64,000 nucleotides of DNA from contig JACPIA010000003.1 of NCBI GenBank assembly GCA_016188295.1, positions 30 to 64,029 of the forward strand. Reading direction: 5' to 3'. Made by a program: the position numbers and the translations under genes. Positions 2,437 through 35,073 of the stretch are shown piece after piece; positions within the stretch are counted from its first letter, which is position 1; every line of letters starts with the position of its first letter. The DNA is from Candidatus Vogelbacteria bacterium. Its GTDB lineage: Bacteria > Patescibacteriota > Minisyncoccia > Phycocordibacterales > XYD1-FULL-46-19. Under the pieces are notes generated by a model. The model saw nothing but the letters and a program-made list of their open reading frames with translations. It was not told the origin of the DNA and did no database searches.

Positions 2437-4575
2437 ATGGCCAATGTTCCGGACAAACTAACTAAACCTTATGATCCCGCCCAGACTGAAGGGCGGATTT
2501 ATAAAGAGTGGGAGGACGGTAATCACTTTGCTCCTCAAGGCAAAGGCGAATCATTCACCATTATTATGCCGCCGCCAAATGCTAATGGTGACTTACACGC
2601 CGGACACGCCCTCTTTATTACGCTTGAGGACATCATGACTCGCTATGCCCGAATGCAAGGTAAGCGCGCGTTATGGGTCCCAGGGGCCGATCATGCCGGG
2701 TTTGAAACACAGATTGTTTACGAGAAAAAGTTAGAAAAAGAGGGACGATCAAGATTTAAAATGTCGCGTGAGGAGCTCTATCAAGAAATTTTAGCGTTTA
2801 CTTTAGAGAATAAAACCAATATGGAGGCCCAGGTACGTCGCCTCGGCGCCTCTTGTGACTGGAGTCGCGAAAAATTTACTTTAGATCCTGAGGTCGTGGC
2901 CGAAGTAGGACGCACCTTTAAAAAAATGTTTGACGACGATTTAATTTACCGCGGCGAGCGCATTGTTAATTGGTGCTCTAAACACGGCACCTCGCTCTCC
3001 GACGTTGAGACCGAGTTTGTGGAGCAAGTTGATCCCCTTTATTACCTCCAATACGGCCCATTTGTGATTGCGACTACTCGCCCCGAGACCAAATTTGGCG
3101 ATAAGTATGTGGTAACGCACCCCGATGATGAGCGCTACGCTAATTACACTCATGGCCAACAACTTGAGCTGGAGTGGATTAATGGCCCGATTACCGCCAC
3201 TGTTATTAAAGATGACGTTATTGATATGAATTTTGGCACCGGCGTGATGACCATCACCCCGTGGCATGATGCGACCGACTTTGAGATCGCTAAGCGACAC
3301 AATTTAAGTAAAGAGCAGATTATTGATGAACACGGTAAATTATTGCCAGTCGCTGGCGATTTAGCCGGCTTAAAAATCAAAGAGGCTAGAGCTAAAATTA
3401 TGGAAAAGTTACAAGCTAAAGGTTTGATAGTTAAAGTGGAAGATAAATATAACCACGCGGTTAAAACTTGTTACAAATGTGGCACCGCTATTGAGCCTCA
3501 AATCCGCGATCAGTGGTTTGTAAAAATGAAGCCGCTAGCTGACCAAGCGGTTAAAGCGGTTAATGACTGCCAGATTAAATTTATCCCCGACAATCAGCGC
3601 AAAATCTTTTTGTATTGGATGGAAAACACTATTGATTGGAACATCTCGCGCCAAATTGTGTGGGGCATACCAATACCGGCTAAAATTTGTGACGCTTGTC
3701 GCAGTGGTATGCCCGATTTAGAAAATAAAATAACTACTTGTCCTAGTTGTAGTGGCCCAATGCGAACCGATACCGATACTTTTGATACCTGGTTCTCTAG
3801 TGGGCAATGGCCGCAATTAGTCCTTGGTTATCCGGATCATGCTGACTTTAAAACTTTTTACCCCACCAGTGTCATGGAAACGGGCCACGACCTCATTTTT
3901 AAATGGGTACCACGAATGGTTATTTTTGGTCTGTACTTAACCGGGCAAGTCCCCTTCCACACTGTTTACTTGCATGGCTTGGTCAATGACGCTAAGGGTC
4001 AAAAAATGAGTAAATCTAAAGGTAATGTAGTTAGCCCTGAAGAGCTAATTAATGAGTTCGGCACCGATGCTCTGCGTATGGCTTTAGTGGTGGGCAATAC
4101 ACCAGGAACTGACTTGGCTCTCGCTCGTGATAAAGTTAAAGCTTACAAGCACTTTGCTAATAAATTGTGGAATGTGGCCCGTTTTATTATTACTGAATTA
4201 GAGCAAAATAAAGATTGGGTAAAAACTGACTTAACCGAGATCGATCACTTATTATTAAAACAATTTGAGGCAGTGATTAAGGAAGTGACTGGTGATTTAG
4301 AACATTATCGATTTCACTTAGCGGCTGAAAAATTGTATCATTATATATGGCACGAGTTAGCTGATGTGTTAATTGAAGAATCTAAAATCATCTTAAAAAC
4401 CGATGCCGCCAATTCTCGCCGGCAGTTATTGTTTAAAATTTTAGACGGCAGTTTACGCACCTTGCATCCGTTTATGCCCTTTATTACGGAAGAAGTTTGG
4501 TCGCTACTGACTCCTCATCACTCTAATCATCAATTGCTCATTATTACCCCATGGCCGCTGTCCTCCAATTTATAA
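2437..4575 (+). CDS. valS: valyl-tRNA synthetase (short form, 712 aa)
   Basis: Class I aaRS motifs PPPNANGDLHAGHA (HIGH) and KMSKSKGN (KMSKS). The PPPN pattern is typical of ValRS. It appears to lack the long C-terminal coiled-coil. Confidence 0.75.
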   Translation: MANVPDKLTKPYDPAQTEGRIYKEWEDGNHFAPQGKGESFTIIMPPPNANGDLHAGHALFITLEDIMTRYARMQGKRALWVPGADHAGFETQIVYEKKLEKEGRSRFKMSREELYQEILAFTLENKTNMEAQVRRLGASCDWSREKFTLDPEVVAEVGRTFKKMFDDDLIYRGERIVNWCSKHGTSLSDVETEFVEQVDPLYYLQYGPFVIATTRPETKFGDKYVVTHPDDERYANYTHGQQLELEWINGPITATVIKDDVIDMNFGTGVMTITPWHDATDFEIAKRHNLSKEQIIDEHGKLLPVAGDLAGLKIKEARAKIMEKLQAKGLIVKVEDKYNHAVKTCYKCGTAIEPQIRDQWFVKMKPLADQAVKAVNDCQIKFIPDNQRKIFLYWMENTIDWNISRQIVWGIPIPAKICDACRSGMPDLENKITTCPSCSGPMRTDTDTFDTWFSSGQWPQLVLGYPDHADFKTFYPTSVMETGHDLIFKWVPRMVIFGLYLTGQVPFHTVYLHGLVNDAKGQKMSKSKGNVVSPEELINEFGTDALRMALVVGNTPGTDLALARDKVKAYKHFANKLWNVARFIITELEQNKDWVKTDLTEIDHLLLKQFEAVIKEVTGDLEHYRFHLAAEKLYHYIWHELADVLIEESKIILKTDAANSRRQLLFKILDGSLRTLHPFMPFITEEVWSLLTPHHSNHQLLIITPWPLSSNL

Positions 4576-5324
4576 CCGAATCGCCTAATTTAGCGGCCAT
4601 CATTGGCGGTGTGGCCCCGGCTGTGGTTTGGTTGTGGTTTTGGCTTAAAGAGGACGGTACTCGCCCCGAGCCCAAGCGTTTAATCGTGCTTTCATTTTTA
4701 CTCGGAGCGATGGCTGTCTTTTTGGCTTTTATTTTAGAACGAATCGCTTTAATGGTTATCGCTCCAGGCTACTCCCCGGCCGACTCGCTCATAACCCTAC
4801 CCTTTAATCAACAAGTAACTGTCATTATTACTTGGTCCTTAATTGAAGAGATGATCAAATATGGTTTAGCCGCCGCCACCATCTTCCGTCTTGCCTCGTT
4901 TGATGAGCCGGTTGACGCTATGATTTATATGATTACCATTGCGTTAGGCTTTAGTGCGATGGAAAACAGCCTCTTTTTACTCAATGCAGGGACATTAGGT
5001 GGAGCCGCGGAACTTTTTTTAACTGGCAATTTACGTTTTTTAGGCGCAACTATTTTGCACGTGGTCTCTTCGGCAGTCATTGGCGGAATGGTCGCTCTCT
5101 CCTTTTACGCTCCCCATATCAAACAAATCGAATATTTTTTAGTCGGGTTATGCACGGCTACCGGATTGCACGCCTTGTTTAATTTCTTTATAATTAGTAC
5201 TGATAGTCGTGATATAATTAAAGTGTTGGCATTTTTATGGCTCTCGGCGATTTTGATTTTGCTTTTGTTTGAGCGAGTCAAACGAACTATTGTTGTTACT
5301 ACTCCACCTACTACTTATGTCTAA
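4551..5324 (+). CDS. PrsW-family-like intramembrane protease (putative)
   Basis: Polytopic membrane protein with an EExxK motif (SLIEEMIKYG), FSAMEN and HALFN motifs reminiscent of PrsW/CPBP-type proteases. Overlaps the valS stop. Confidence 0.45.
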   Translation: MAAVLQFITESPNLAAIIGGVAPAVVWLWFWLKEDGTRPEPKRLIVLSFLLGAMAVFLAFILERIALMVIAPGYSPADSLITLPFNQQVTVIITWSLIEEMIKYGLAAATIFRLASFDEPVDAMIYMITIALGFSAMENSLFLLNAGTLGGAAELFLTGNLRFLGATILHVVSSAVIGGMVALSFYAPHIKQIEYFLVGLCTATGLHALFNFFIISTDSRDIIKVLAFLWLSAILILLLFERVKRTIVVTTPPTTYV

Positions 5325-6690: not shown

Positions 6691-6691
6691 G

Positions 6692-6763
6692 TGCTCCCGA
6701 TAGGAGTCGAACCTATATTTACCTCTTAGGACGGGGTTGTTCTATCCATTGAACTACAGGAGC
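6692..6763 (-). tRNA. tRNA-Arg (anticodon CCT, probable)
   Basis: Reverse complement GCTCCTGTAGTTCAATGGATAGAAC...gtCCTaa...GGTTCGACTCC...TCGGGAGCA. The anticodon stem has one mismatch, so the anticodon call is moderate. Confidence 0.65.
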
Positions 6764-6984
6764 AGGGAGCTTAACTTAGCTTGATCAAAACCAACTAAAA
6801 TCTGATCATCAATAATAATCACTGGCACACCCATTTGGCCGCTCTTGGCAATCATCTCATTACGCCTCACGGCGTCAGCGGCTACATTAAACTCCTCATA
6901 GGTCACGCCGTTAGCTTTAAAAAACTCTTTAGCCATTTTACAGTAATGGCAAGTGGGAGTGGAGTAGATTGTTACTTTTTTCAT
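6754..6984 (-). CDS. glutaredoxin (NrdH/GrxC-like)
   Basis: 76 aa with a CHYC active site (TPTCHYCKMAKEFF) and a thioredoxin-fold pattern. Confidence 0.8.
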   Translation of the reverse strand: MKKVTIYSTPTCHYCKMAKEFFKANGVTYEEFNVAADAVRRNEMIAKSGQMGVPVIIIDDQILVGFDQAKLSSLLL

Positions 6985-6990: not shown

Positions 6991-7287
6991 TTATTTTACC
7001 ATATCAGTCAAATAATCCCCAAGCTCATCATTTTTGGCCGCTTTATTGGGTTTAATGTAACCACATCTAACGCAAACGTGCTCAATAATAAACTCCCCGC
7101 CTTCCAGTTTAACCACTTTAGGCTCCATTAAGCCACCACATTGTGCCGCCCGATCGCCGGGTGTTACGTCCACATGTTTACTCCACAAACACTTAGAGCA
7201 ATGATTAGTGTACCCATCCCCCGCCACCTCCGCGCCACACTTCTCACACCCAAAATCCTCTTTAACTTTTTTAAATCCTTGGGACAT
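6991..7287 (-). CDS. RNHCP domain-containing zinc-ribbon protein
   Basis: Cys-rich protein with CxxC pairs (GCEKCG...HCSKC...CVRCG) and a YTNHC motif. Confidence 0.55.
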   Translation of the reverse strand: MSQGFKKVKEDFGCEKCGAEVAGDGYTNHCSKCLWSKHVDVTPGDRAAQCGGLMEPKVVKLEGGEFIIEHVCVRCGYIKPNKAAKNDELGDYLTDMVK

Positions 7288-7288
7288 G
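7246..7288. repeat. 43-bp direct repeat, copy 1 (covers the start codon and codons 1-14 of the RNHCP gene)
   Basis: acacccaaaatcctctttaacttttttaaatccttgggacatg, identical to 7800-7842. Confidence 0.85.
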
Positions 7289-7292
7289 GTTA

Positions 7293-7535
7293 TTATTTGG
7301 TATAAAACTTATCCCTTAATTCATCTTCCGATACAAATTTACTAGTCTGATTAAAAATCGCTTTTAAAGTACCCCTATCAATATCTCTATGATTAGGGAC
7401 AGTCAGTATTTGAAAACCAAAATCAGTTTCCCTTCTCATCTTGATGTGACTACCTCTTTGTTTAGCAACAATAAAACCAAAGCCCTCAAGAATTTTGATG
7501 ACTTCTTTTTGAGAGAGCCTTTTTAATTTAGGCAT
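7293..7535 (-). CDS. hicA: type II toxin-antitoxin system HicA family toxin
   Basis: 80 aa with the KEVIKILEGFGF...RGSHIKM...TVPNH pattern typical of HicA/YcfA mRNA interferases. Confidence 0.8.
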   Translation of the reverse strand: MPKLKRLSQKEVIKILEGFGFIVAKQRGSHIKMRRETDFGFQILTVPNHRDIDRGTLKAIFNQTSKFVSEDELRDKFYTK

Positions 7536-7755
7536 ACGACAACTGCGGGAGTTCGAAATTCAATAAGACAGACGGCGAGTTGGTAAAACCTAAAGACTTG
7601 GCATTTTCGTCCTCAAAATGGAGTTCTACCGCCTCCTTTATATTTAGAGCCAGCTCATCAAGCGTTTTACCTTGAGTCACAATAGCCACATCAACCCCTT
7701 CGGCGACATAGTATTTTTCCCCTTTAGAGATATGAAATTGGATGATATTTTTCAT
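7528..7755 (-). CDS. hicB: HicB-family antitoxin (UPF0150 N-domain only)
   Basis: 75 aa with YYVAEGVDVAIVTQGKTLDEL...IKEAVELHFED. Overlaps hicA by 8 nt. Confidence 0.7.
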   Translation of the reverse strand: MKNIIQFHISKGEKYYVAEGVDVAIVTQGKTLDELALNIKEAVELHFEDENAKSLGFTNSPSVLLNFELPQLSYA

Positions 7756-7799
7756 AATTACAATATAACCACAAATGACGATTTACCGCAACTTAACTT

Positions 7800-7842
7800 A
7801 CACCCAAAATCCTCTTTAACTTTTTTAAATCCTTGGGACATG
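7800..7842. repeat. 43-bp direct repeat, copy 2 (orphan 5-prime fragment of the RNHCP gene abutting the tRNA-Gly 3-prime end)
   Basis: Perfect copy of 7246-7288. Ends 1 nt before tRNA-Gly. Confidence 0.85.
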
Positions 7843-7913
7843 TGCGGGATATGGGAATCGGACCCATGTCTCATCCTTGGGAAGGACGTGTTCTGCCATT
7901 GAACCAATCCCGC
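7843..7913 (-). tRNA. tRNA-Gly (anticodon CCC)
   Basis: Reverse complement GCGGGATTGGTTCAATGGCAGAAC...ttCCCaa...TGGGTCCGATTCCCATATCCCGCA. Confidence 0.8.
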
Positions 7914-21114: not shown

Positions 21115-21125
21115 AGATCTAATTA

Positions 21126-21713
21126 TCAAGGCGTTGCCTTGATAATTAGATACCGAAAGCAGGTGACCTCATGATCATTAACTAAGCCAACCGCCTGCAT
21201 CAAGGCATAGCAGATAGTGGGGCCGACAAATTTAAAGCCACGTTTTAGCAAATCTCTACTCATCGCCACGGACTCTTTAGTGGTAATGGGGATGTCGGTT
21301 AAGGATTTAATTTTATGATTAATCGGCTTACCGCCGACAAACTGCCAAATGTACCGGTCAAAAGAGCCAAACTCCTTTTGCACCTTTAAAAAGGCTTGGG
21401 CGTTTTTGATAGTAGCAACAATTTTTAGACGATTGCGGATAATGCCGGGGTCGACCAAGAGCCGTTTAACGTCCTTGGCGTCATAAGAGGCTATTTTCTT
21501 TACATTAAAATTAGCAAAAGCTTTACGATAGATCTGACGCTTATTGAGCACTGTTTGCCAGGTAAGTCCAGCTTGTGCACCTTCTAAAATCAAAAATTCA
21601 AACAGCGTTCGGTCGTCGTGGACCGGTACGCCCCACTCCTTATCGTGATAGGCGACCATTAGTGGGTTGCTTCCGCACCACTGACAGCGATATAGCCCAG
21701 ATTTTTTAGCCAT
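21126..21713 (-). CDS. tag: DNA-3-methyladenine glycosylase I (Tag)
   Basis: RCQWCGSNPLMVAYHDKEWGVPVHDD zinc-binding N-terminus and an HhH-GPD-like fold, 195 aa. Confidence 0.85.
   Translation of the reverse strand: MAKKSGLYRCQWCGSNPLMVAYHDKEWGVPVHDDRTLFEFLILEGAQAGLTWQTVLNKRQIYRKAFANFNVKKIASYDAKDVKRLLVDPGIIRNRLKIVATIKNAQAFLKVQKEFGSFDRYIWQFVGGKPINHKIKSLTDIPITTKESVAMSRDLLKRGFKFVGPTICYALMQAVGLVNDHEVTCFRYLIIKATP
21128..21152. repeat. REP-like palindrome variant (atcaaggcgttgccttgat), overlaps the tag stop
   Basis: Core caaggc-N3-gccttg is shared with the REP family at 21730, 34596 and 35011. Confidence 0.4.
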
Positions 21714-21729
21714 TATTTTTTTAAATACC

Positions 21730-21756
21730 CACTGTCAAGGCGAGGCCTTGACAGTG
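21730..21756. repeat. REP-like palindromic element (cactgtcaaggc gag gccttgacagtg)
   Basis: 12-bp arms with a 3-nt spacer. Same family as the elements flanking the RAYT gene at 34.6-35.1 kb. Confidence 0.7.
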
Positions 21757-21787
21757 CTTCTAGTCGACTTCACTAAAGTTTCAATTT

Positions 21788-21875
21788 TGGCGGAGGGTGA
21801 GGGATTTGAACCCTCGATGCCTTTCGGCATACACGCTTTCCAAGCGTGCGCACTAGACCGCTATGCGAACCCTCC
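21788..21875 (-). tRNA. tRNA-Ser (anticodon GGA), CCA encoded
   Basis: Reverse complement GGAGGGTTCGCATAGCGGTCTAGTGCG...ttGGAaa...long variable arm ATGCCGAAAGGCATC...GGTTCAAATCC...CCGCCA. Confidence 0.85.
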
Positions 21876-21918
21876 AGTCTATCGCATAGTGCCTTAATAT
21901 TTGGTTTTTTTCAAGTTA

Positions 21919-22806
21919 TTACAAACTCATCTCGCGGAGGAGACGGATGCGCTCAGCGACAGGTGGATGGGTGGCGAGGAGCCCGGTAAAACGCTTGGTC
22001 GCCCCGCCGAAAGGGTTAGCGATGTATAAGTGTGCCGTGGCACTATTAGCCGTTTTGAGTGGCACAACGCTGACACTGATTTTCTCTAAGGCACTCGCCA
22101 ATCCCTCGGGGTAACGTGTAAGGAGCGCACCAGTGGCATCGGCTAAGTACTCTCGCCGGCGTGAGATCGCTAAATGGAGCAGTGAAGCGACAAGCGGTGC
22201 CAAAAGCCCGGCGATAAATACCCCAAGCATCAGGAGGCCGCCGGCGCGACTATCGCGATTACTTCGACCATGCAAACCACTGCGTAAAATCATATCACTG
22301 GCAATAGAGACAAAACCCACCAACACCACTGCCGCGGTAGAGAGCAACATATCACGATTACCGATATGGGCAAGCTCATGAGCAATAACGCCCTCAAGTT
22401 CATTGCGCTCTAAACACGCTAATAAGCCAGTAGTTACGGCTACGGCCGAGTGCTTTCTGTCACGCCCAGTGGCAAAAGCATTGAGGGCCATATCCTCAAT
22501 CACATACAGTTTAGGCATCGGAAGTCCAGCGGCGATAGATAAATTCTCGGTTACAGTATAAAGATCAAAAAATCCACTTCGCATCGCCGGTTTGGCCCGC
22601 GCCATTTTTAAGACCAACTTGTCGGACCACCAATAGCCGGCTACATTCATGACGAGCGAGAAAATCACCGCCACGTAAAGCACATTAGGTGAATCAAAAT
22701 AAACACTCAAGAGCCAGCCCACACCGATCACTACCACCACGAAAACACCAAACAACGCCCAAGTCTTGGCGTTGTTACTCGCCTGATGAGTATAAAGCGT
22801 CGCCAT
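21919..22806 (-). CDS. htpX: zinc metalloprotease HtpX (M48 family)
   Basis: HELAHIGNRD zinc-binding motif and 4 TM helices. Confidence 0.85.
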   Translation of the reverse strand: MATLYTHQASNNAKTWALFGVFVVVVIGVGWLLSVYFDSPNVLYVAVIFSLVMNVAGYWWSDKLVLKMARAKPAMRSGFFDLYTVTENLSIAAGLPMPKLYVIEDMALNAFATGRDRKHSAVAVTTGLLACLERNELEGVIAHELAHIGNRDMLLSTAAVVLVGFVSIASDMILRSGLHGRSNRDSRAGGLLMLGVFIAGLLAPLVASLLHLAISRRREYLADATGALLTRYPEGLASALEKISVSVVPLKTANSATAHLYIANPFGGATKRFTGLLATHPPVAERIRLLREMSL

Positions 22807-22817
22807 AGATTACAAAA

Positions 22818-23372
22818 TTAAAACGAGACTGGTACCGGATTTTTAGCCACCGCCTCCTCGAGCTCAAAAAAGTCGCTGACTTTAAAACCAAATATCCCGG
22901 CAATAAGATTGGAGGGGAAAGAGCCCACCAGCACATTTAAGTCCCGGACATTGCCATTGTAAAAGCGACGCGCCGCTTGGATCTTATTCTCGGTATCAGC
23001 GAGCTCGCGCTGGAGCTCTAAAAAGTTTTGATTTGCTTTCAAATCTGGGTAGGCCTCGGCCACCGCAAACAGACTTTTAAGCGCGCCAGTTAGCATGTTC
23101 TCGGCCTCACCATGCTCGACCACACTGCCAGCCGAGAGCGCTTTGGCCCGAGCAGTGGTCACGCGATCAAAAGTCTCGCGCTCGTGGGTGGCATAACTCT
23201 TAACCGTCTCCACCAAGTTAGGGATCAGATCGTAACGGCGCTTAAGTTGCACGTCGATATCAGCCCAAGCTTCTTTAACCCGTATTGTTAAAGCCACAAA
23301 TCGATTATAAACAAAAACAATGATAATTAATAAAAAGACAATTATTCCTAATACAATATAGAGTGTAGACAT
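22818..23372 (-). CDS. lemA: LemA family protein
   Basis: N-terminal TM plus the LemA pattern (WADIDVQLKRRYDLIPNLVETVK...NFLELQRELADTENKI). Confidence 0.8.
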   Translation of the reverse strand: MSTLYIVLGIIVFLLIIIVFVYNRFVALTIRVKEAWADIDVQLKRRYDLIPNLVETVKSYATHERETFDRVTTARAKALSAGSVVEHGEAENMLTGALKSLFAVAEAYPDLKANQNFLELQRELADTENKIQAARRFYNGNVRDLNVLVGSFPSNLIAGIFGFKVSDFFELEEAVAKNPVPVSF

Positions 23373-23399
23373 AGTAAGATTAATTATACCACCTGCCCA

Positions 23400-25040
23400 C
23401 TAGTAATCCATCTCGGGTACCCCATGTTTATGTTCCTCTTTTTTAGGTTCATCCACAATCGCCACCTCAGTCGTGAGGAGAATAGCCGCCGCGCTGGCCG
23501 CTCGCTCAAGACCGGTGCGTGTTACTTTAACCGGATCAATAATCCCGGCAACATACATATCAGCCACAATCTCATCAGCATTGGCATCATAACCCTCATT
23601 GCCCTTACCGATTTTAACTTTATCCACAATTACCGCACCATCATCTTTACCAGCGTTAATCGCAATTTGACGCAAGGGGGCATCGAGAGCTTTCAATAAA
23701 ATCTGGACACCAACCTCAAACTCGGCGGTCACATCATTAGATGGTGGGACAATTTTTTTACTGGCCACTTTAGCACCCGCTCTTACTAACGCCGTACCAC
23801 CACCGGGCACAATCCCCTCCGCCACCGCCGCTTTAGTCGCTTTGACTGCATCCTCAATTTTTAATTTTTTATACTTCATCTCCGACTCGGTCGAAGCACC
23901 GACTTTAATTACCGCCACACCGCCAGAGAGCTTGCTCAAACGCTCCACTAACTTTTCTTTATCGTAACTTGATTCGGTATTTTCAATCTGTCCGCGTAAT
24001 TGGGCAATCCGCTTATCTATCTCTCCTTTCTTCCCTTTACCACCCACAATCGTAGTTGAGTCTTTAGTGGCAATTATTTTACGGGCCCGGCCGAGCATTC
24101 CCACCTCCACATTCTCCAACTTTAATCCTAAACTTTCGGTCACCACTTGACCGCCAGTTAAAATAGCAATGTCCTCCAGCATCTCCTTACGCCGATCACC
24201 AAAACCCGGTGCTTTAATCGCTAGAGCACTAAAAGCACCGCGCAGTTTATTAACAATCAAAGTGGCCAAAGCCTCACCATCCACATCCTCGGCAATAATC
24301 ACCAATTCTTTTTTACCGGCCCCCGCCATCTTTTCCAACAACGGCAAAATCTCTTTGATGGATGAAATCTTTTTGTCGGTAATTAAAATGTGCGCATCAC
24401 CATACTCGGCCTCCATCCGCTCATTGTCGGTAATTAAGTAGGGCGAGGCATAACCTTTATCAAATTGCATCCCCTCCACAAACTCCGACTCGACGGCAAA
24501 AGTTTGCGACTCCTCCACTGTCACCACACCATCCTTACCCACCTGATCAATGGCCGCGGCAATAATCTCGCCAAACTCGGCTGACTCGGCGGAGATCGTC
24601 GCCACTTGGGTAATCTCTTGTTTATTTTTAATCGGCTTAGCCATCGCTTGTAGCGCTTTAACCACCTCGGCCGCCGCGGCCTCAATGCCCAGTTTTACCC
24701 CCATGGCATTTACGCCCAAAGTGGTCTTTTTAAAACCCTCCTCAATTAACGCTTGAGTTAAAACCACCGCGGTGGTGGTACCGTCACCGGCCACCTCATC
24801 TGTTTTACTAGCCACCTCTTTAATAATCTCGGCGCCCATGTTTTCGAGGCGATTAGTTAAGGTAATTTCTTTAGCAATGGAGACGCCGTCATTGGTGATC
24901 ATCGGCGTACCAAAGCTTTTGTCGAGGACCACATTGCGCCCCTTCGGACCGATAGTCACTCGCACGACACTAGCTACCGCGTCAATACCACGTTTTAAAC
25001 CCAATCGGGCCGCCTCATTAAAAATAATTTGTTTTGCCAT
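23400..25040 (-). CDS. groL: chaperonin GroEL (Cpn60)
   Basis: [23 protein letters not shown]...[17 protein letters not shown] and a Gly/Met-like C-terminus. Confidence 0.95.
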
Positions 25041-25058
25041 AATTTTACTCGGTAATAA

Positions 25059-25361
25059 TTACTCGATAATCGCTAAAATATTCGACTCGCTGATGATCAA
25101 ATACTCCTGATCGCCCACCTTGACCTCGTCAGGACCATACTTAGAGAATAAAACTGTCTGGCCTTTTTTGACTTTAATTGGGACGAGCCGGCCATCATCA
25201 GCCACCTTGCCCTCGCCGACAGCGATCACCAAACCCTGTTCCGGTCGCTCTTTACTTGCCGTCTCGGGGATATACAAACCACTTTTGGTTTTAGAATCCT
25301 CTTTTGAGGGCGCCACCAGCACTTTATCGCCTAATGGCTTAATTTTGATAGTATTTTTCAT
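25059..25361 (-). CDS. groS: co-chaperonin GroES (Cpn10)
   Basis: IKPLGDKVLV...SGLYIPETA...GEGK pattern, 100 aa, directly upstream of groL. Confidence 0.9.
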   Translation of the reverse strand: MKNTIKIKPLGDKVLVAPSKEDSKTKSGLYIPETASKERPEQGLVIAVGEGKVADDGRLVPIKVKKGQTVLFSKYGPDEVKVGDQEYLIISESNILAIIE

Positions 25362-25370
25362 AGCACTACT

Positions 25371-25398
25371 ATTATAGACAGAAAAAACTGTTTGTCAA
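25371..25398 (-). promoter_or_regulatory. candidate sigma70-type promoter for groES-groEL (TTGACA-16-TATAAT on the minus strand)
   Basis: Minus-strand reading tttGACAaacagttttttctgtcTATAATag. The -10 lies at 25371-25376 and the -35 at 25393-25398. No CIRCE inverted repeat found. Confidence 0.55.
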
Positions 25399-25435
25399 AA
25401 AATAAAATCCCCTGGATCAACAAGGATCCAGGAGA
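25396..25435 (-). terminator. rho-independent terminator for the upstream minus-strand gene
   Basis: Hairpin TCCCCTGGATCaacaaGGATCCAGGAGA followed on the minus strand by a T-run (plus strand AAAAAATAAAAT). Confidence 0.5.
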
Positions 25436-25461
25436 TGAAGGATTGAGAACTCTTAAACGAT

Positions 25462-26163
25462 TTACCGCTTGGACGCTCCAACCAGTCGCTTCTGATTTGC
25501 GACATGATTAGGGAGGACAACACGATGACAACAACAACCTTCGGTATTCAAGGTAACATCAATAGAAAAAGGACTAAGGCCATCAAAACCTAATATTGAC
25601 TGGCCGTCATCACGCAAAGATACACAGGCAGCGGAGAACTGATTGCCAGTTCTAAAAAAGAAGACCGTGTAATAATCCCTACTAAGCCAATCGCGATGAT
25701 CCAGACAAAACTGAATAATCTTATCCTCCGGAAGGACAAAATCATCTAATGTACCACCAGACAGACTCTCGATTATTTGTCTATAAGTGACATTTGGACG
25801 CATTTCCCGTACTGCGACTGCTATTGGCGGACTAGTGTCACGACAGGCACCAGTATTGAGTTCTGAGAAGACTGAATCGATGAAAGCAAACACGTCACGT
25901 GCTTCGGCTAGTGTTCGACTGCCATCTGTTTCGGCGATAATCAAGTTCTCACCACCGGGCAATCGTCGTAGGTATCTATCTTGATAGGCCTGACCGACAG
26001 CCAAAAATGCGACCCTGACCACTTCTCTACCCTTACCTGTCGTCAACCACTCTACAATGGCCGGACTGACACCAAGATCAGTCATGGTGTTGCGGAAGAG
26101 GACGACCAATTCTTGACACACTGCCGCCAGTTTGGTTAGCGCTTTCCAGTCTTCCATTTCCAA
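25462..26163 (-). CDS. hypothetical protein (paralog 1 of a tandem pair)
   Basis: 233 aa. Shares blocks with 26451-27131 (ETDGSRTLAEARDVFAFID vs PTDGTETLAKAKDLFVWID, YYTVFFFRTGNQFSAACVSLRDDG vs YATLFLFKQGEEFFIAYVDLDDDG, RVVLP). Confidence 0.55.
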   Translation of the reverse strand: MEMEDWKALTKLAAVCQELVVLFRNTMTDLGVSPAIVEWLTTGKGREVVRVAFLAVGQAYQDRYLRRLPGGENLIIAETDGSRTLAEARDVFAFIDSVFSELNTGACRDTSPPIAVAVREMRPNVTYRQIIESLSGGTLDDFVLPEDKIIQFCLDHRDWLSRDYYTVFFFRTGNQFSAACVSLRDDGQSILGFDGLSPFSIDVTLNTEGCCCHRVVLPNHVANQKRLVGASKR

Positions 26164-26450
26164 GGTCCTTTCTATGAGCTACAGCCACTCATCCCGCCAC
26201 TAGGCGCGACCCTAAGCCATAGCGTTTATCTACTACCAGTATACACTTAAAGCAAATTAAGTCAATGGTTTGTGGTAATGTGCACACACATTACCAAGTT
26301 GCCTCAACGCTGGCTTTGTAAATATGACGGGGTTTAGGATCATTGATTGAAAAGGCGTAATAGTAGTATACAAAAAAGTCTCTCAAATCCATAAGTATAA
26401 GGATGAGAGAGACTAAGGGTTGAGGAAGAACAAATTGAGAGTAAGAGAGA

Positions 26451-27131
26451 TTAAGCAGCCAGTTGTGGGAGGACAACGCGAGGCCGGTAGACCGCGTACC
26501 AGACACTGTCGTTCGAAAAACGGTAAACGTCCACCCGCAGCCCGCCGTCGTCGTCCAGGTCCACGTAGGCGATGAAGAATTCTTCTCCCTGTTTAAAGAG
26601 GAAGAGGGTAGCATATTCACTGGTACGTAACCACCCCCCATATTTCTGTACAAACTGCTTGATTTGGTGCTGGGTCAAACAGAGCTGATCCAAGTTACCA
26701 CCAACACTGTTAAAGAATTGGTTAAACCGACCGTTCTTGACTAACTCATGCACTTGGACCTTCGTGGCAGGAGTGGCCGTCGCTGGTAGACCCAAACCCC
26801 AACTGGTAAAGCAATCATCGATCCAAACAAACAGATCTTTGGCTTTGGCCAAGGTTTCGGTACCGTCAGTCGGGTCGAGAGTAATTTCCTCTTTGCCCGA
26901 AATGAGCTTGAGAAAACCATTGGCCTCGCGGTATTTGACCACAAACACTTCCGTTACCTCGGCCAGAACCTTGCGACCTTCGTCAGTGTTAGTCCAGTAG
27001 AGAATGTTTTCATCCATCCCAAGCTTTGCGAGCGTTTTGCCAATGACCACCAGCGACTCGCTCAACACCGCGCCAAACAAACCAAACAATTTTTCCATGA
27101 CCAGTCTCCTGGTTGTGCTTCTGTCCCTCAC
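26451..27131 (-). CDS. hypothetical protein (paralog 2 of a tandem pair)
   Basis: 226 aa, paralogous to 25462-26163. The probable true start is the internal MEKLFG. The P2 palindrome lies about 100 bp upstream. Confidence 0.55.
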   Translation of the reverse strand: MRDRSTTRRLVMEKLFGLFGAVLSESLVVIGKTLAKLGMDENILYWTNTDEGRKVLAEVTEVFVVKYREANGFLKLISGKEEITLDPTDGTETLAKAKDLFVWIDDCFTSWGLGLPATATPATKVQVHELVKNGRFNQFFNSVGGNLDQLCLTQHQIKQFVQKYGGWLRTSEYATLFLFKQGEEFFIAYVDLDDDGGLRVDVYRFSNDSVWYAVYRPRVVLPQLAA

Positions 27132-27227
27132 CCTGTCACATAACAGAGCCCCAGACAGTTGCTTTTTACCCTTATTTTCAAGGGTCTACTCTACCCTTTA
27201 CTATACACCTATTACCAATTTTAGTCA

Positions 27228-27269
27228 ATTATTCCAAAAAATACGCTATAGCGTGTAATTTGGAATAAT
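27228..27269. repeat. P2 palindromic element, copy 1 (ATTATTCCAAAAAATACGCTATAGCGTGTAATTTGGAATAAT)
   Basis: Outer arms ATTATTCCAAA/TTTGGAATAAT and inner palindrome ACGCTATAGCGT. The same family occurs at 58754 and 59398. Confidence 0.75.
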
Positions 27270-27299
27270 CTAACTTATTCTACTTATAAAGAGTAAAAA

Positions 27300-27857
27300 T
27301 TAAATGTAATCAAATTCTTGGAACACTTGTTTATAGAGCTCAATGGTAGCGCGCGCTTCGCGCTTGTTTAATTGATGATTAGGCTCGTGGGCAATTTGAT
27401 TCCGTACTTTATGCGCTTCCCAGGCTTGGTTAAGGGTAAGGAAGTCACTTGCCTCAATCGCCTTTAAGCGCTCGCCTAAATTCTCGCCCGGGTAATTCAT
27501 CCTCGCCACGAGTGCATCTAAAATAGTATCGGCTTCAATAATCGCCAGCTTCCAATCCGAGGGATTGTCCGAGTCAATAAATTTCATTACTCGCTCAAAC
27601 TGCTCGGTATAATCTTTAGAGGCCACCACTGGTTGAGTAATATTTTCAATAATCTTTTTCTTATTCAACTCAATTAATCGTAGCGAAATGTAAACAATAA
27701 GCGCGAGCCAGATCAGACCAATAGTTATTCCGATTACTTTAATTACCGGCAACCACACCAATACCGGCATCCCTAAATTACGCCAACCACCATTAAACAG
27801 TAATTGGTAAATTAAGTTAAAAAAATATTCAAAGTTAATGTAAACAGTCGATTGCAT
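27300..27857 (-). CDS. hypothetical membrane-anchored protein
   Basis: 185 aa with an N-terminal TM segment. No recognisable domain. Probably co-transcribed with gatCA. Confidence 0.45.
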   Translation of the reverse strand: MQSTVYINFEYFFNLIYQLLFNGGWRNLGMPVLVWLPVIKVIGITIGLIWLALIVYISLRLIELNKKKIIENITQPVVASKDYTEQFERVMKFIDSDNPSDWKLAIIEADTILDALVARMNYPGENLGERLKAIEASDFLTLNQAWEAHKVRNQIAHEPNHQLNKREARATIELYKQVFQEFDYI

Positions 27858-29278
27858 TATGATGTTTTAGCTTCAAATTCACCCGCAATCTCAAATAAAG
27901 TATTCTCACCCATTGGCGCACCAGTTAATTGGATACCGAGGGGTAAGCCCGCTTTAGTTTTGCCCGCCGGTATCGAGATGGCGGGTACGCCAGCTAAATT
28001 AATCGGCACCGTAAAAATATCTTCCAGATACATGGTCAAGGGATCACTCGCCTTCTCGCCGATTTTAAAGGCCGGCCCTGGGGTAGTGGGCGTTAAAATG
28101 GCATCCACCTCTTTAAACACTTTAGCGTAATCGGCTTTAATCATCTCACGCACTGCCCCGGCTTTAGCATAATAAGCATCGTAATAACCAGCCGAGAGTA
28201 CATAAGTACCAAGCATTATTCGCCGACGCACCTCTGGGCCAAAACCCTCGGCCCGCGACACCTCATACTCCTCCAGTAAATTTTTCCCTTCCGCATGATG
28301 ACCATAACGCACACCATCAAAGCGGGCTAAATTAGTGGAGGCCTCGGCCGGCATAATAATGTAATAACAAGCCAGTGCATATTTAATGGACGGCAACTCA
28401 ACATCCACCACTTCATAACCTAAGTTTTTAAATATCTTTTCCGCTTCGGCAAAAGTCGCCGCCATTTCTGGATCTAAACCCTCACTCACAAACGAGCGTG
28501 GTACGCCAATTTTTTTACGAGTCGAGACTGGCCGCAACTCATCAGCGCGAGTGGTGGAATCAAGCAGATCTACTCCTTTAATTACCTCAAACAATAATTT
28601 AGCATCAGCCACTGTTTTAGTAATGGGACCAATTTGATCAAGCGATGAGGCCATAGCTACAAGTCCTGAACGAGAGACTAGACCATAAGTGGGCTTAAGT
28701 CCGACTACTCCACAAAAAGCCGCCGGCTGACGAATCGAACCACCAGTGTCCGAGCCCAAAGCGCCCAAAGCCAAGTCAGCTGCTACTACAGCCACTGATC
28801 CACCCGAGGAACCACCGGCCACTCGAGTTAAATCCTTAGGATTTTTAACCGCCCCAAAAGCGGAGTTTTCCGTCGAGCCACCCATCGCAAATTCGTCCAT
28901 ATTAGTCCGGCCGAGTAAAATAGCCCCCGCCTCTTTTAATTTACTAATCACCGCCGCATCATAACTAGCGGTGTAATTAGCTAGAATTTTAGAAGCACAT
29001 GAAGCAATTTTGCCTTTAATTAAGATATTATTTTTAATCGCAAGCGGTACGCCGGCTAAAGGGGACAACTTTTCACCCTTGGCTCGACGCTCATCAATTA
29101 ATTTAGCTTGAACTAAAGCATCGGTAAATACTTCTAAATAAGCATTTAAATTATCACCCTTCGCTTTGGCTAAATAGTGCTCGGTTAAAGCCACGGCCGT
29201 TAACTCACCACTTGCTAATTTTTTAGCTACCCCGCTAATGGTCAAATTAGTGGTATCCATATTAACTGGTACTGTCAC
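27857..29278 (-). CDS. gatA: Glu-tRNA(Gln)/Asp-tRNA(Asn) amidotransferase subunit A
   Basis: Amidase signature GGSSGGS with Ser-cisSer-Lys triad context, 473 aa. Confidence 0.9.
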   Translation of the reverse strand: MTVPVNMDTTNLTISGVAKKLASGELTAVALTEHYLAKAKGDNLNAYLEVFTDALVQAKLIDERRAKGEKLSPLAGVPLAIKNNILIKGKIASCASKILANYTASYDAAVISKLKEAGAILLGRTNMDEFAMGGSTENSAFGAVKNPKDLTRVAGGSSGGSVAVVAADLALGALGSDTGGSIRQPAAFCGVVGLKPTYGLVSRSGLVAMASSLDQIGPITKTVADAKLLFEVIKGVDLLDSTTRADELRPVSTRKKIGVPRSFVSEGLDPEMAATFAEAEKIFKNLGYEVVDVELPSIKYALACYYIIMPAEASTNLARFDGVRYGHHAEGKNLLEEYEVSRAEGFGPEVRRRIMLGTYVLSAGYYDAYYAKAGAVREMIKADYAKVFKEVDAILTPTTPGPAFKIGEKASDPLTMYLEDIFTVPINLAGVPAISIPAGKTKAGLPLGIQLTGAPMGENTLFEIAGEFEAKTS

Positions 29279-29555
29279 CTAAAATAGCTTTGACCTCCAC
29301 AAAGCCATCATGAGATTTAGGCGCCGCGGCAAGTAGTTCATTAGTGTACTCACCAGCATCATGAGGATTAGTATCCACTCGCATCACATTAGCGGCGGGC
29401 AATTCCGTCGAGAGTGCCGGCACGTCAACTTGAGCAAGTTCCCCAACATAATTTAAAATCGAGTTTAAATCCTGCACCAAACTCGCCTCCTCCTCAGACT
29501 TAAGGGAGAGCCGGGCTAATCGGGCTAATTTTTGGACTTCCTCATTACTGATCAT
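29262..29555 (-). CDS. gatC: amidotransferase subunit C
   Basis: 97 aa with MISNEEVQKLARLARLSL, directly upstream of gatA. Confidence 0.8.
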   Translation of the reverse strand: MISNEEVQKLARLARLSLKSEEEASLVQDLNSILNYVGELAQVDVPALSTELPAANVMRVDTNPHDAGEYTNELLAAAPKSHDGFVEVKAILGDSTS

Positions 29556-29567
29556 AGGGTTATCGTA

Positions 29568-31553: not shown

Positions 31554-31558
31554 AATTC

Positions 31559-32116
31559 CTACTGTACCACACGAGTCTCAATAAAACGCTGGACTAACCG
31601 TGGCGAGGGTGAGTTACAATCAGCACTATAACCGAACGCTCGGATGGTAGCGACAACCCTGGGATCATCAGATAAAATGTCCCCATCTGGACTAGTTGCT
31701 GGTACGCCATGAAAAACTGTGACTTCGGCGCAACGAGGAGGAATATTATTTTCTCCTAACAAATCCACCTGATAAGAAAAAGACCCTCGACGTTCAATAT
31801 TATTGAATAGCTCCTCTACAATCACTGCACCATTATGACAAGTTAAAGCGGTAATACCGCCATTAAATAGACTGGCGCCCAACTCATTGACCCAAAACAA
31901 GGCGCAGTCCCGTCCGGCATCGGCGGCATAGTAAGCGATTTTAGCATCACGAGCCGTAGCGGCGATCACTAATTGTTTAAGTAAAATATTAGCTAACAGT
32001 AAGCCTACTGTGATCACAATACTAGAAACCAATACGGCATACAAGAGTACGAAACCATAATTTAATTTTAAATTAATCTTCATAATTTTAGAGTACTTCT
32101 TGAATTGGTCGAGCAT
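31559..32116 (-). CDS. pilus-associated protein (PilX-like / minor pilin-like)
   Basis: N-terminal hydrophobic segment in operon position with minor pilins. Weak class III signal. Confidence 0.35.
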   Translation of the reverse strand: MLDQFKKYSKIMKINLKLNYGFVLLYAVLVSSIVITVGLLLANILLKQLVIAATARDAKIAYYAADAGRDCALFWVNELGASLFNGGITALTCHNGAVIVEELFNNIERRGSFSYQVDLLGENNIPPRCAEVTVFHGVPATSPDGDILSDDPRVVATIRAFGYSADCNSPSPRLVQRFIETRVVQ

Positions 32117-32684: not shown

Positions 32685-32690
32685 AAACTC

Positions 32691-34553: not shown

Positions 34554-34595
34554 ATATCACTTAATTTTACCACGTTAGTCATTATTACCACCTTA

Positions 34596-34992: not shown

Positions 34993-35010
34993 AACTTTAA
35001 TTTATTATAC

Positions 35011-35036: not shown

Positions 35037-35073
35037 AGGGGAAACAAAAAACCTCCTTGGTTGGAGGAGGGTT

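Follow-up and report, generated by a model that had tools for sequence, protein, structure and literature searches.

How does a bare two-gene unit enter a chromosome? Toxin–antitoxin modules move between genomes, and the entry of such a unit without a transposase or integrase is poorly documented. The question is raised by a locus within a window of 64,000 nucleotides (the whole stretch of DNA that was analysed), in which an overlapping hicB–hicA pair lies between a tRNA-Gly(CCC) gene and an RNHCP-domain gene and is enclosed by two copies of a 43-nt sequence. It offers a clean case, having a perfect repeat, a minimal insert, empty and alternatively filled sites in relatives, and a further event, independent of the first, at the same gene start.

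Layout of the locus

The features of the locus are as follows:

6691-6763, reverse strand: tRNA-Arg(CCT), conserved downstream neighbour
6754-6984, reverse strand: glutaredoxin gene, conserved downstream neighbour
6991-7287, reverse strand: RNHCP-domain zinc-ribbon gene, intact, 98 aa (Pfam PF12647, E 1.3e-25, residues 10-88)
7246-7288, reverse strand: direct repeat copy 1, comprising 1 nt (C), the ATG and codons 2-14 of the intact RNHCP gene
7289-7292, reverse strand: 4-nt spacer from the hicA stop codon to copy 1, right end of the insert (read from the sequence)
7293-7535, reverse strand: hicA toxin gene, 80 aa, with RGSH motif (Pfam PF07927, E 2.7e-17)
7528-7755, reverse strand: hicB-like antitoxin gene, 75 aa, single domain (profile and fold matches)
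7756-7799, reverse strand: promoter-like region, 44 nt, with -35-like and extended -10-like elements, left end of the insert
7758-7841, reverse strand: orphan ORF, MSQGFKKVKEDFGC then KLSCGKSSFVVIL, then stop, part of the ORF 7758-7907
7800-7842, reverse strand: direct repeat copy 2, an orphan RNHCP 5' fragment comprising C, ATG and codons 2-14
7842-7913, reverse strand: tRNA-Gly(CCC), intact (ARAGORN), its 3' end abutting the orphan fragment

The sequence ACACCCAAAATCCTCTTTAACTTTTTTAAATCCTTGGGACATG is present twice, at 7246-7288 and 7800-7842, with 43/43 identity, and the perfect repeat described in the first-pass annotation is thereby confirmed. These were its only two matches in the window with up to three mismatches allowed. 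Extension to 7243/7797 gave 46 nt with one mismatch. None of 100 dinucleotide shuffles contained a match, and a chance origin was rejected on this basis. The annotation had named membership in a dispersed repeat family as an observation that would speak against its reading. This was also rejected, as the 43-mer is unique in the window and was found at no other position there or in the 125 fetched loci. The assignment of copy 1 to the RNHCP gene start and of copy 2 to an orphan fragment at the end of tRNA-Gly(CCC) held in both the sequence and the ARAGORN prediction. The C at 7842 in copy 2 is the last base of the tRNA according to ARAGORN, and the orphan ATG therefore lies 1 nt past the discriminator base. 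This single base is the only tRNA sequence in the repeat; the rest is RNHCP coding sequence.

The DNA between the copies is, as had been described, the overlapping hicB–hicA pair. It measures 511 nt, including the 4-nt spacer and 44 nt upstream of hicB, and contains the promoter-like stretch, hicB and hicA only. Its composition is foreign, with a G+C content of 0.358 versus a window mean of 0.436, placing it in the lowest 1.6% of 511-nt windows. The neighbours are the tRNA gene, RNHCP, glutaredoxin, a DivIC-like gene and LepA, with no mobility gene among them. The insert carries no integrase and is well under the 20-kb criterion for long-target-duplication inserts. Its ends bear no terminal inverted repeats, and no palindromic attC-like element was found at the insert, where the hicA stop codon is only 4 nt from the repeat. 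An integron gene cassette was rejected for the lack of an attC. NCBIfam and PADLOC returned no match for the three proteins (RNHCP, HicB and HicA).

HicA matched PF07927 with 63 bits (cutoff 27) over profile positions 2-56 of 58, and 249 homologues were found at E ≤ 1e-10. Its gene overlaps hicB by 8 nt. For HicB, the Pfam match was weak (PF15919, HicB_lk_antitox, E 0.065), and a 50-sequence profile retrieved TTHA1756 at E 5e-5. The AlphaFold model of HicB, built with database homologues, had a pLDDT of 76 and a beta-beta-beta-alpha-beta topology. Its best PDB match was the HicB-type TTHA1013 (TM 0.73-0.76, rmsd 2.2 Å), followed by TTHA1756 and the SWOL_0700 antitoxin. The 852 homologues have the same 75-aa form and are named HicB family by NCBI and JGI. 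The single domain fills the 75 aa, and a C-terminal DNA-binding domain (RHH or HTH) is absent; the protein is a short-HicB variant. Wherever a fetched locus covers the region, the 75-aa HicB homologue stands directly upstream of hicA. The HicA domain, the modelled HicB fold and the gene pairing together indicate a HicAB type II toxin–antitoxin pair. The earlier identification thus stood for HicA by its domain and RGSH motif, whereas that of HicB is weak by sequence and is backed by the TTHA1756 profile match and the TTHA1013 fold. The viral contigs searched contained neither a HicA relative nor a copy of the 42-mer, and hence gave no sign of a phage vehicle.

Upstream of hicB, a -35-like TTGCGG occurs at 7786-7791 and an extended -10-like TGTGGTTATAT(T) at 7762-7773, 6-7 nt before the hicB ATG, in a leaderless-type layout. 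The alignments showed that this pattern and its spacing are kept upstream of hicB in nine cassette relatives. A generic sigma-70 scan called no promoter in this region, and its function as a promoter is therefore putative. The orphan ORF runs from the orphan ATG through the promoter-like region and stops 2 nt before the hicB ATG; it may have a role in translational coupling. In L081, the closest relative, the sequence that follows tRNA-Gly is similar to the 30 nt preceding hicB here. A native origin of the promoter region was rejected, since this similarity is best accounted for by the extended -10/leaderless architecture common to all cassette relatives; the resemblance to L081 was accordingly not taken as evidence of a native promoter.

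The tRNA-Gly/RNHCP junction in relatives

The order tRNA-Gly(CCC)–RNHCP–glutaredoxin–tRNA-Arg(CCT) recurs in relatives, its glutaredoxin/tRNA-Arg(CCT) part being shared by L001, L002, L008, L010, L081 and L082. The first-pass annotation had proposed that the cassette was inserted beside tRNA-Gly with duplication of the RNHCP start, and had advised a search of relatives for an empty site. Such sites, with tRNA-Gly followed by RNHCP and a single RNHCP start, were present in three loci, whose RNHCP proteins are only 57-76% identical to that of the window. The gap is 5 nt after the CCA in L082 (RNHCP 76% aa identity), 7 nt in L010 and 27 nt in L001. The 3' half of tRNA-Gly is identical to that of L081 and L082. 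L081 (~85% aa identity) lacks hicBA and carries another gene at this position. These sites and the low G+C content of the insert agree with the proposed insertion, and no relative carries hicBA at the same place without the repeat.

The junction also holds unrelated cargo in L081, L004, L006 (a ParE-type toxin–antitoxin pair) and L008. In L008, a GrpB gene lies between two copies of an RNHCP-start duplication of 35 nt and 80% identity, which also starts at ATG-1; this insertion is an event independent of that in the window. In L002, part of the tRNA-Gly 3' end is repeated in direct orientation 11 nt before RNHCP and is accompanied by an inverted tRNA fragment; together they form an att-type scar of the classical kind at this hot spot. 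The tRNA-Gly gene is inverted in L003 and L005. The junction is an insertion hot spot with RNHCP as its conserved right-hand neighbour.

The suggestion of a tRNA-linked integration was borne out in part. The insert does adjoin tRNA-Gly, but the duplicated sequence is the RNHCP 5' end rather than the tRNA, which argues against classical tRNA-att integration, and we rejected this candidate. An island of a tRNA-targeting integrase was likewise dismissed, because the element has no integrase and its repeats are not a tRNA 3' segment. Exact-sequence look-ups of RNHCP and HicA matched no contig. An exact search of the JGI metagenomes with the tRNA-Gly 3' half gave 0 matches, so that no conspecific or congeneric empty allele was recovered there.

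The cassette family at other loci

Relatives of the hicBA cassette occupy many different genomic contexts. Flanking direct repeats of 33-112 nt, with locus-specific sequences, were found in about 5 of 27 independent contexts, compared with 13 of 1565 control positions (0.8%). The family is thus flanked by long locus-specific repeats far more often than expected by chance. A transposon, IS or MITE was rejected, as terminal inverted repeats are missing and the flanking repeats differ in length between loci (33-112 nt).

In L083, a 77%-identical hicBA copy lies inside a duplication of the ruvB 3' end (63 nt, 84% identical) whose limit is the stop codon. The two copies differ at 11 bases, and about 8 of these differences are either synonymous or replace one stop codon by another. 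Such a pattern would be expected if two diverged orthologous gene ends had been joined, although this bias is modest (about p = 0.03 by our own binomial estimate). The repeats of L107, L094 and the L104 group are intergenic, lie around hairpins or terminators and are not bounded by gene ends. In L097, L098, L102, L103 and L104, they surround a shared terminator hairpin with a variable extension of 34-97 nt, and this group was therefore counted as one context. Rfam returned no RNA family for the repeat-bearing loci, including the 112-nt repeat of L094.

Mode of insertion

We favour an integrase-free insertion by host recombination with a long target duplication, likely a single crossover through the conserved RNHCP 5' end, stabilised by addiction. 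We put the probability of this reading at about 50%. The best explanation of hicB–hicA itself is a horizontally acquired minimal addiction cassette, beginning with its own promoter, ending with the hicA stop codon and encoding no recombinase.

We infer the following course. Ancestrally, the RNHCP start codon would have followed tRNA-Gly almost directly (reconstructed as tRNA-Gly...GCA-C-ATG... with one 43-mer). A donor DNA with hicB–hicA immediately upstream of an RNHCP 5' end would have recombined with the resident gene through a short, highly conserved stretch. Most probably, a circularised fragment was integrated by a single (Campbell-type) crossover; alternatively, an equivalent event may have combined one homologous with one illegitimate junction. 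The crossover would duplicate the homology segment, which would explain why the repeat starts at the gene start, where the homology of donor and recipient begins, while an illegitimate junction would explain its arbitrary end in codon 14/15. The product would be the orphan 5' fragment at the tRNA, then the cassette, then the intact RNHCP gene. Recombination between the two 43-nt copies would precisely remove the cassette and restore the ancestral site, yielding a predicted 554-bp circle with the junction hicA stop-TAAC-43-mer-AAGTTAAGTTGCGG.... Cells losing hicB while HicA persists should suffer, and the repeat-flanked structure would persist for this reason.

The boundary of the repeat falls at ATG-1, directly at the tRNA end in the window and at ATG-1 also in L008, and such a position exactly at a gene start points to homology-limited recombination rather than to a transposase-type staggered cut. 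The window, L081, L082 and L006 share one sequence at RNHCP nt 13-37, although their proteins are 63-85% identical, and this stretch could serve as a usable recombination anchor between species. In E. coli, a single crossover of a circle with a truncated homology segment duplicates the homologous segment, whereas truly one-sided illegitimate events lead to deletions and not to duplications (PMC3240628). For this reason, entry of a linear fragment by one-sided homology-facilitated illegitimate recombination was rejected. Against the crossover, the donor arrangement, hicBA directly upstream of RNHCP, was not found in the fetched loci outside the window.

Several further observations count against the crossover. 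With 43 bp, the homology approaches the minimum length for RecA-dependent recombination, which PMC2884548 cites as about 30 bp for E. coli, and a circle of 554 bp is very small. In L008 and L083, the repeats are 80-84% identical; they would serve homologous recombination poorly and may be old in-situ duplications. The repeats of L107, L094 and the L104 group fit a staggered-break target duplication equally well. In an insertion of this type, as described by Nobusato, Furuta and Kobayashi, the cassette would be joined to breaks or nicks 43 nt apart and fill-in would duplicate the target. No donor homology to RNHCP would be required and a single event would suffice. Variable, locus-specific repeats of 33-112 nt do recur around the cassette relatives, also at the purely intergenic targets of L107, L094 and L104. 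Restriction-modification (RM) systems that entered genomes in the absence of mobility genes bear the same signature, their repeats measuring 45-423 bp (PMC2853133). The coincidence of the boundary with the tRNA end and ATG-1 would then be left to chance, at about 3% by our own estimate, because a boundary anywhere in the ~70-nt tRNA would be equally tolerated; moreover, the independent L008 event shares the ATG-1 boundary, and an enzyme making such variable long staggered cuts is not known. We regard the staggered-break insertion as possible but, on balance, unlikely.

The remaining explanations we consider improbable. The 43-nt repeats could be attL and attR of a non-autonomous, CIME-like element moved in trans by an integrase encoded elsewhere, either a tRNA-targeting one or the large serine recombinase encoded in the window at 45094-46617. 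The junction adjoins a tRNA gene, the att-type tRNA-Gly scar of L002 lies at the same hot spot, and the inverted tRNA-Gly of L003 and L005 would fit as well. The repeat, however, holds no tRNA sequence beyond one base and no inverted sub-sites, no further 43-mer copy exists in the window or the fetched loci, and the repeats flanking the cassette relatives are unrelated in sequence and length, which leaves no conserved att core. Serine integrases, moreover, as far as is known, leave only a 2-bp crossover identity, not 43-bp repeats. Equally improbable is an origin within the genome, in which hicBA already stood upstream of RNHCP, was duplicated in tandem together with the first 43 nt of that gene, and then lost its first copy, leaving the orphan fragment at the tRNA. 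Illegitimate tandem duplications and deletions arise frequently in bacteria, and 100% repeat identity is expected of a recent in-genome event. Two events would be needed, however, and the deletion in the second would have to stop precisely where the tRNA ends at its 3' side; neither the arrival of hicBA at the site nor the diverged, synonymous-biased repeats of L083 and the recurrence at unrelated loci would be explained (illegitimate tandem duplications and deletions are discussed in PMC2884548). An assembly artefact, in which strain variants with and without the cassette were merged and the shared segment appears twice, is very improbable. The source is a MAG contig, and close cassette relatives are mostly on very short contigs, as is typical of strain-variable regions. 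A linearised de Bruijn bubble, by our own reasoning, makes no non-tandem duplication 511 nt apart; both ORFs and the tRNA are intact, and analogous repeat-flanked structures occur in independent assemblies of other projects (L008, L083, L094, L104, L107 and L109).

Comparison with known systems

Insertion with long target duplication has been described for RM gene complexes (Nobusato et al. 2000, Gene 259:99; Furuta, Abe & Kobayashi 2010, PMC2853133), and Furuta et al. hypothesised that such complexes pass through a cycle in which they are inserted, amplified or excised by way of the repeats, and spread by reinfection (PMC2853133). The hicBA locus resembles these cases (PMC2853133) in being a small selfish addiction unit with no integrase or transposase and with long (>30 bp), variable direct repeats. 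In both, the repeated sequence has one counterpart at the empty sites of related genomes, here those of relatives with 57-76% aa identity in RNHCP. The RM-complex repeats are genome-unique and sometimes overlap gene ends; here, uniqueness holds within the 64-kb window. The cargo, by contrast, is a type II toxin–antitoxin pair with an RNase toxin, and thus lacks the DNA breakage that has been proposed as the driving force of RM insertion. The host also differs, being an uncultured member of the Patescibacteria, as does the repeat, whose limits coincide exactly with a gene start and a tRNA end. A 2013 review of RM and toxin–antitoxin systems ascribed movement with long target duplication to RM systems only (PMC3874152). 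By analogy, the locus would add a toxin–antitoxin example to integrase-free insertions of this kind, so far described mainly for RM genes.

The E. coli lacZ assay (PMC3240628) likewise produced a homologous segment duplicated on both sides of the insert, with one repeat boundary at the end of homology and the other at an illegitimate junction. Its duplications measured 109-950 bp on plasmid-derived circles, whereas the present case has a 43-bp homology and a circle of ~554 bp, and is known from sequence alone. At T6SS effector–immunity, Rhs and CDI loci, orphan fragments are attributed to homology-facilitated illegitimate recombination, and successive events build arrays (PMC5361080). There, too, a conserved segment of a flanking gene serves as the anchor for incoming modules, and orphan resident fragments remain (PMC5361080). 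Those fragments are 3' toxin-domain or immunity parts of polymorphic loci, in contrast to the duplicated 5' end of a housekeeping-type gene seen here, where nothing was displaced. A ParE/ParD-like module of Microcystis aeruginosa PCC 7806 shares the overlapping gene pair, the identical direct repeats (152 bp) and the absence of a mobility gene (PMC7935541). Its repeats are intergenic, with inverted sub-repeats, and 120-147 bp from the genes, unlike the gene start repeated here. An empty-site or target-duplication reading is not known to have been proposed for it, whereas empty sites were found for the present locus.

Integrative elements that target tRNA genes, and CIMEs, share with the hicBA locus the position beside a tRNA 3' end, the direct repeats and the potential for excision. 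The locus differs from these elements in having no integrase, a repeat that is not tRNA, a size of 0.5 kb and a repeat sequence that is not conserved among the cassette copies. The hicAB genes of Haemophilus influenzae reportedly came to notice as an insertion within the hif pilus gene cluster that varied between strains, and are said to form a similarly small HicA/HicB insertion without mobility genes. The present pair is unlike it in having the antitoxin gene first and a HicB without a DNA-binding domain.

Implications

If the pattern holds, it would link toxin–antitoxin mobility to the unexplained long-target-duplication route of RM systems and would suggest addiction as the preserver of such unstable structures. 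The locus also indicates that accessory genes can enter extremely compact genomes, in which 1 nt separates a tRNA from a start codon, without destroying the neighbouring gene. A broader and more doubtful proposal is that the 75-aa HicB/80-aa HicA family as a whole is a recombinase-free mobile element of ~0.5 kb, running from promoter to stop codon, which inserts with long variable target duplications, or by single crossovers at short conserved ends of genes, and cycles to an excised circle through those repeats, its loss being punished by the toxin. Were this true, a mobile hicBA unit would be spreading among Patescibacteria and other uncultured bacteria, the "virus-like life cycle" of RM systems would extend to classical toxin–antitoxin modules, and long target duplications would, as a rule, be seen only where the cargo is addictive.

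The window encodes a ComFC-like protein, and type IV pilus ATPase-like genes were read in it by eye from the translation. Taken at face value, these genes could provide a possible route of DNA uptake.

Gene content and layout of the cassette

The 98-aa protein was identified as an RNHCP-domain zinc-ribbon protein (PF12647, E 1.3e-25) and the 80-aa protein as a HicA toxin (PF07927, E 2.7e-17). The 75-aa protein gave a marginal Pfam match only (HicB_lk_antitox, E 0.065). It is the constant partner upstream of HicA in all related loci whose hicA-upstream region could be inspected, and its family of 852 members is named HicB by NCBI and JGI. The family profile matched the Thermus protein TTHA1756 (E 5e-5), and the AlphaFold model (pLDDT 76) superposed best on TTHA1013 (TM 0.73–0.76) and also on TTHA1756. 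Based on the constant pairing, the family names, the profile match and the fold match, we accept the ORF pair as hicB-hicA of the short form, with an antitoxin devoid of a DNA-binding domain. Identical proteins are named by NCBI as coming from a Candidatus Vogelbacteria (Patescibacteria) MAG.

The first-pass annotation had described an overlapping hicB-hicA pair between perfect 43-bp direct repeats, one copy comprising the start and codons 1–14 of the RNHCP gene and the other being an orphan. This description was confirmed by the ORF and ARAGORN coordinates. The 43-nt sequence ACACCCAAAATCCTCTTTAACTTTTTTAAATCCTTGGGACATG occurs at 7246–7288 and 7800–7842, with no third match in the window at up to three mismatches, and 0 of 100 dinucleotide-preserving shuffles gave a match. 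The repeat extends to 46 nt if one mismatch is tolerated.

Features between tRNA-Gly and the RNHCP gene (window positions)
7913–7842, minus: tRNA-Gly(CCC), by ARAGORN
7842–7800, minus: repeat copy 2, orphan, the same 43 nt as copy 1
between repeat copy 2 and the 75-aa ORF, minus: non-coding stretch, 44 nt
7755–7528, minus: 75-aa ORF (hicB)
7535–7293, minus: 80-aa ORF (hicA), overlapping the 75-aa ORF by 8 nt
between the 80-aa ORF and repeat copy 1, minus: spacer, 4 nt
7288–7246, minus: repeat copy 1
from 7287, minus: 98-aa ORF (RNHCP), its remainder beyond repeat copy 1

Since the 98-aa ORF starts at 7287, copy 1 consists of one base and the first 14 RNHCP codons. The first base of the orphan copy is the last base of tRNA-Gly according to ARAGORN. 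The insert is compositionally foreign: its G+C content is 0.358, as compared with 0.436 ± 0.038 for 511-nt windows, which places it in the lowest 1.6%.

The tRNA-Gly/RNHCP junction in relatives

Searching the RNHCP protein against one genome per species yielded no close relative (best identity 59–64%). The order tRNA-Gly(CCC), RNHCP, glutaredoxin, tRNA-Arg(CCT) and, in some cases, tRNA-Phe was conserved in the nearest Patescibacteria. A protein database search added two closer RNHCP relatives, L082 (76% identical) and L081 (85%). Empty sites, in which tRNA-Gly is directly followed by RNHCP, had been proposed as a check and were found in three loci: L082, where the RNHCP ATG lies five bases past the encoded CCA of tRNA-Gly, and L010 and L001, where 7 and 27 nt, respectively, separate the two genes. 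L081, whose LepA and IleRS are 84–87% identical to those of the window, carries an unrelated 234-aa gene between tRNA and RNHCP, and the repeat is absent from its junction. Other cargo comprised a 158-aa membrane-like ORF (L004), about 1.9 kb including a ParE-type TA pair whose end lies 2 nt before RNHCP (L006), and a peptide deformylase gene with a GrpB gene (L008). The tRNA-Gly was wholly inverted in L003 and L005. These empty sites, varied cargo and inverted tRNAs, together with partial tRNA copies, show that the cassette is an insertion and that its junction is a hot spot at which events of several kinds have occurred.

The partial copies were seen in L002 (CAYSSL010000001.1), where two fragments of the tRNA-Gly 3' end lie between tRNA-Gly and RNHCP (4828–4848 and 4968–4990). 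One is an inverted tRNA piece, and the other is a direct partial copy of the 3' end (GATTCCCTACCCGCAC) located 11 nt before the start codon of RNHCP. They resemble a scar left by classical tRNA-att integration at this hot spot.

In a scan of 83 RNHCP loci for additional copies of each locus's RNHCP start, the window and L008 (JAPLZN010000152.1) were the only positives. The L008 repeat (766–800 / 1357–1391) is a 35-nt, 80% identical duplication of the RNHCP start. The ATG of the deformylase gene comes immediately after the tRNA-Gly CCA, the orphan ATGTCTCAAACTTTTATCAAAAACGAAGCCGATT directly follows the deformylase gene, and the GrpB-family gene (838–1356) lies between the orphan and RNHCP. Similarity begins at ATG-1, as in the window. 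L008 is a second, independent RNHCP-start duplication.

Flanking repeats across the cassette family

Relatives of the cassette (HicA 74–81%, HicB 85–89% identical) sit in wholly different neighbourhoods, and their DNA similarity to the window is confined to the segment from the promoter-like -35/extended -10 through the hicA stop codon. We compared the 600-nt left and right flanks of all cassette relatives that could be fetched.

Significant flanking direct repeats in the cassette family
window: 43 nt
L083, 474–536 / 1145–1207: 63 nt, 84% identical
L094, 2599–2710 / 3351–3462: 112 nt, 100% identical
L097/L098/L102/L103/L104 group, one locus in related genomes: 34–97 nt (L104, 530–626 / 1273–1368: 97 nt)
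L107, 2676–2712 / 3235–3271: 37 nt
L109, 144–181 / 1125–1162: 38 nt

In some 22 further independent contexts, these flanks showed no significant direct repeat, and 13 of 1565 control positions (0.8%) reached the same threshold. Long locus-specific repeats are thus enriched around the hicBA cassette family-wide, on the evidence of about 27 contexts, of which many lie on short contigs; this enrichment was not reported in the literature within reach of our search. Both sequence and length of the repeats vary between loci, their material being the start or the end of a gene or intergenic hairpins. In L083 (Logan SRR22387818), a 77%-identical cassette lies downstream of ruvB; the repeat is the ruvB 3' end up to the stop codon, and its differences are mostly synonymous. 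The repeats of L094, L104, L107 and L109 are intergenic and unrelated to one another. Despite the identical repeat copies in L094, its flanking gene shares just about 73% identity with the counterpart in related genomes, which suggests homogenised repeats or a recent re-insertion.

L104 contains two different hicB-hicA modules in tandem (33–523 and 681–1143), both with the terminator hairpin AAACGGGGCCTCCCCCGTTTTTTG behind them, and may represent a small cassette array. Compared with L098, it has an extra hairpin-rich insertion of about 125 nt between the hicA stop and the right-hand repeat. L085 is another cassette copy adjoining a tRNA gene; a 36-nt unit GTGGTATTTTGGGTGGGTAGTGCGCTCAACCAAAAA is present there three times (648–820; 64–81% identical), between the hicA stop and tRNA-Glu(CTC).

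Origin of the duplication

The window locus resembles the described insertions with long target duplication: the repeat exceeds 30 bp, mobility genes are absent and the insert is below 20 kb. The repeat is also single-copy at empty sites, although these come from other species. This mode was described for RM systems (PMC2853133), and a later review ascribes it to RM systems only (PMC3874152). In Microcystis, 152-bp repeats were reported on both sides of one TA pair (PMC7935541). The cassette is therefore a further case of a known kind, not a new kind of element.

Several readings were rejected or judged unlikely. The 511-nt insert has no room for a recombinase and lacks the terminal inverted repeats of a transposon. 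An integron cassette is excluded by the lack of an attC-like element, only 4 nt lying beyond the hicA stop codon. The repeat is not tRNA sequence, as just one base is shared with tRNA-Gly. A dedicated site-specific system is unlikely because the cassette copies have no conserved repeat core, and the variable repeat length argues against a transposase. Window searches, shuffles and locus searches exclude both a chance repeat and the dispersed repeat family considered in the first-pass annotation. An assembly artefact is unlikely, since analogous structures exist in independent assemblies.

Two integrase-free routes remain. In homology-limited recombination, donor DNA would carry hicBA just upstream of an RNHCP start, and a single crossover with the resident RNHCP gene would duplicate the homology segment. 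The repeat boundaries (ATG-1 in the window and L008, the stop codon in L083) fit this route because the repeat starts where donor/recipient homology would begin; the mostly synonymous differences of the diverged L083 repeat fit as well. RNHCP nt 13–37 (TTTAAAAAAGTTAAAGAGGATTTTG, 25 nt, codons 5–13; 7251–7275, and 7805–7829 in the orphan copy) are identical in four genomes (window, L006, L081 and L082) whose proteins are 63–85% identical, and this segment offers an anchor across species. The first 14 codons have no synonymous differences, as compared with about 19% base differences between the window and L081 in the next 26 codons. This conservation could reflect a translation-initiation constraint or another role. 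Experiments in E. coli showed that single crossovers of circular molecules produce duplications of this type and that genuine one-sided illegitimate integration gives deletions (PMC3240628). Alternatively, the repeat could stem from a primary insertion with long staggered duplication of the target, a mode inferred for RM systems (PMC2853133). A single event would suffice and would accommodate L107, L094 and L104, where the repeats are intergenic, but the exact match of the repeat with the tRNA end and the gene start would be luck, and we consider this origin less likely for the window. We favour homology-limited recombination at this locus, with a probability of about 0.5.

Under either route, precise deletion of the cassette could occur through recombination of the 43-nt copies. 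We propose that post-segregational harm mediated by HicA would counter-select such loss, and this addiction selection would explain why long flanking repeats surround RM and TA modules more than ordinary genes.

Gene packing and other features of the window

The 27-codon orphan ORF spans the putative cassette promoter, from the orphan ATG to a stop 2 nt short of the hicB ATG, and RNHCP starts 5 nt beyond the end of hicA. The minus strand showed no terminator-like site from tRNA-Gly to tRNA-Arg. Given these abutting ORFs and the lack of a terminator-like site, the whole stretch may be co-transcribed, besides any transcription from the cassette's own leaderless-type promoter. The glutaredoxin ORF (6754–6984) overlaps tRNA-Arg(CCT) (6691–6763) by 10 nt (6754–6763), and the ancestral RNHCP ATG would have lain 1 nt past the tRNA-Gly discriminator base. 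This spacing of tRNA and protein genes is extremely tight and implies mRNA ends made by tRNA processing.

A large serine recombinase gene (45094–46617, plus; Resolvase, Recombinase and Zn_ribbon_recom) runs into the antisense of tRNA-Ser(GCT) (46563–46652, minus). It is bracketed by 29-nt perfect-palindrome hairpins (44973–45001 and 46504–46532, 90% identical) and followed by a GIY-YIG gene (46664–46993); the recombinase region may be an integrated element. A 191-aa PaaX_M/Cas2-like gene (47476–48051) lies between the copies of a 40-nt direct repeat (47426–47465 / 48070–48109, 98% identical), internally palindromic (TTGTACCA...TGGTACAA), which may represent a pair of operator sites or a further repeat-flanked insertion. 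A ComFC-like gene (double zinc ribbon and phosphoribosyltransferase) and type IV pilus/secretion ATPase-like genes, the putative ATPase being assigned from its translation, occupy 42820–43476 and 48554–50837 and are consistent with a DNA-uptake capacity. The 25-nt palindromic unit ATGTCAAGGCCTCGCCTTGACATTG occurs six times within 21123–35099, three of these in 34597–35099, and the units are probably terminator-type hairpins.
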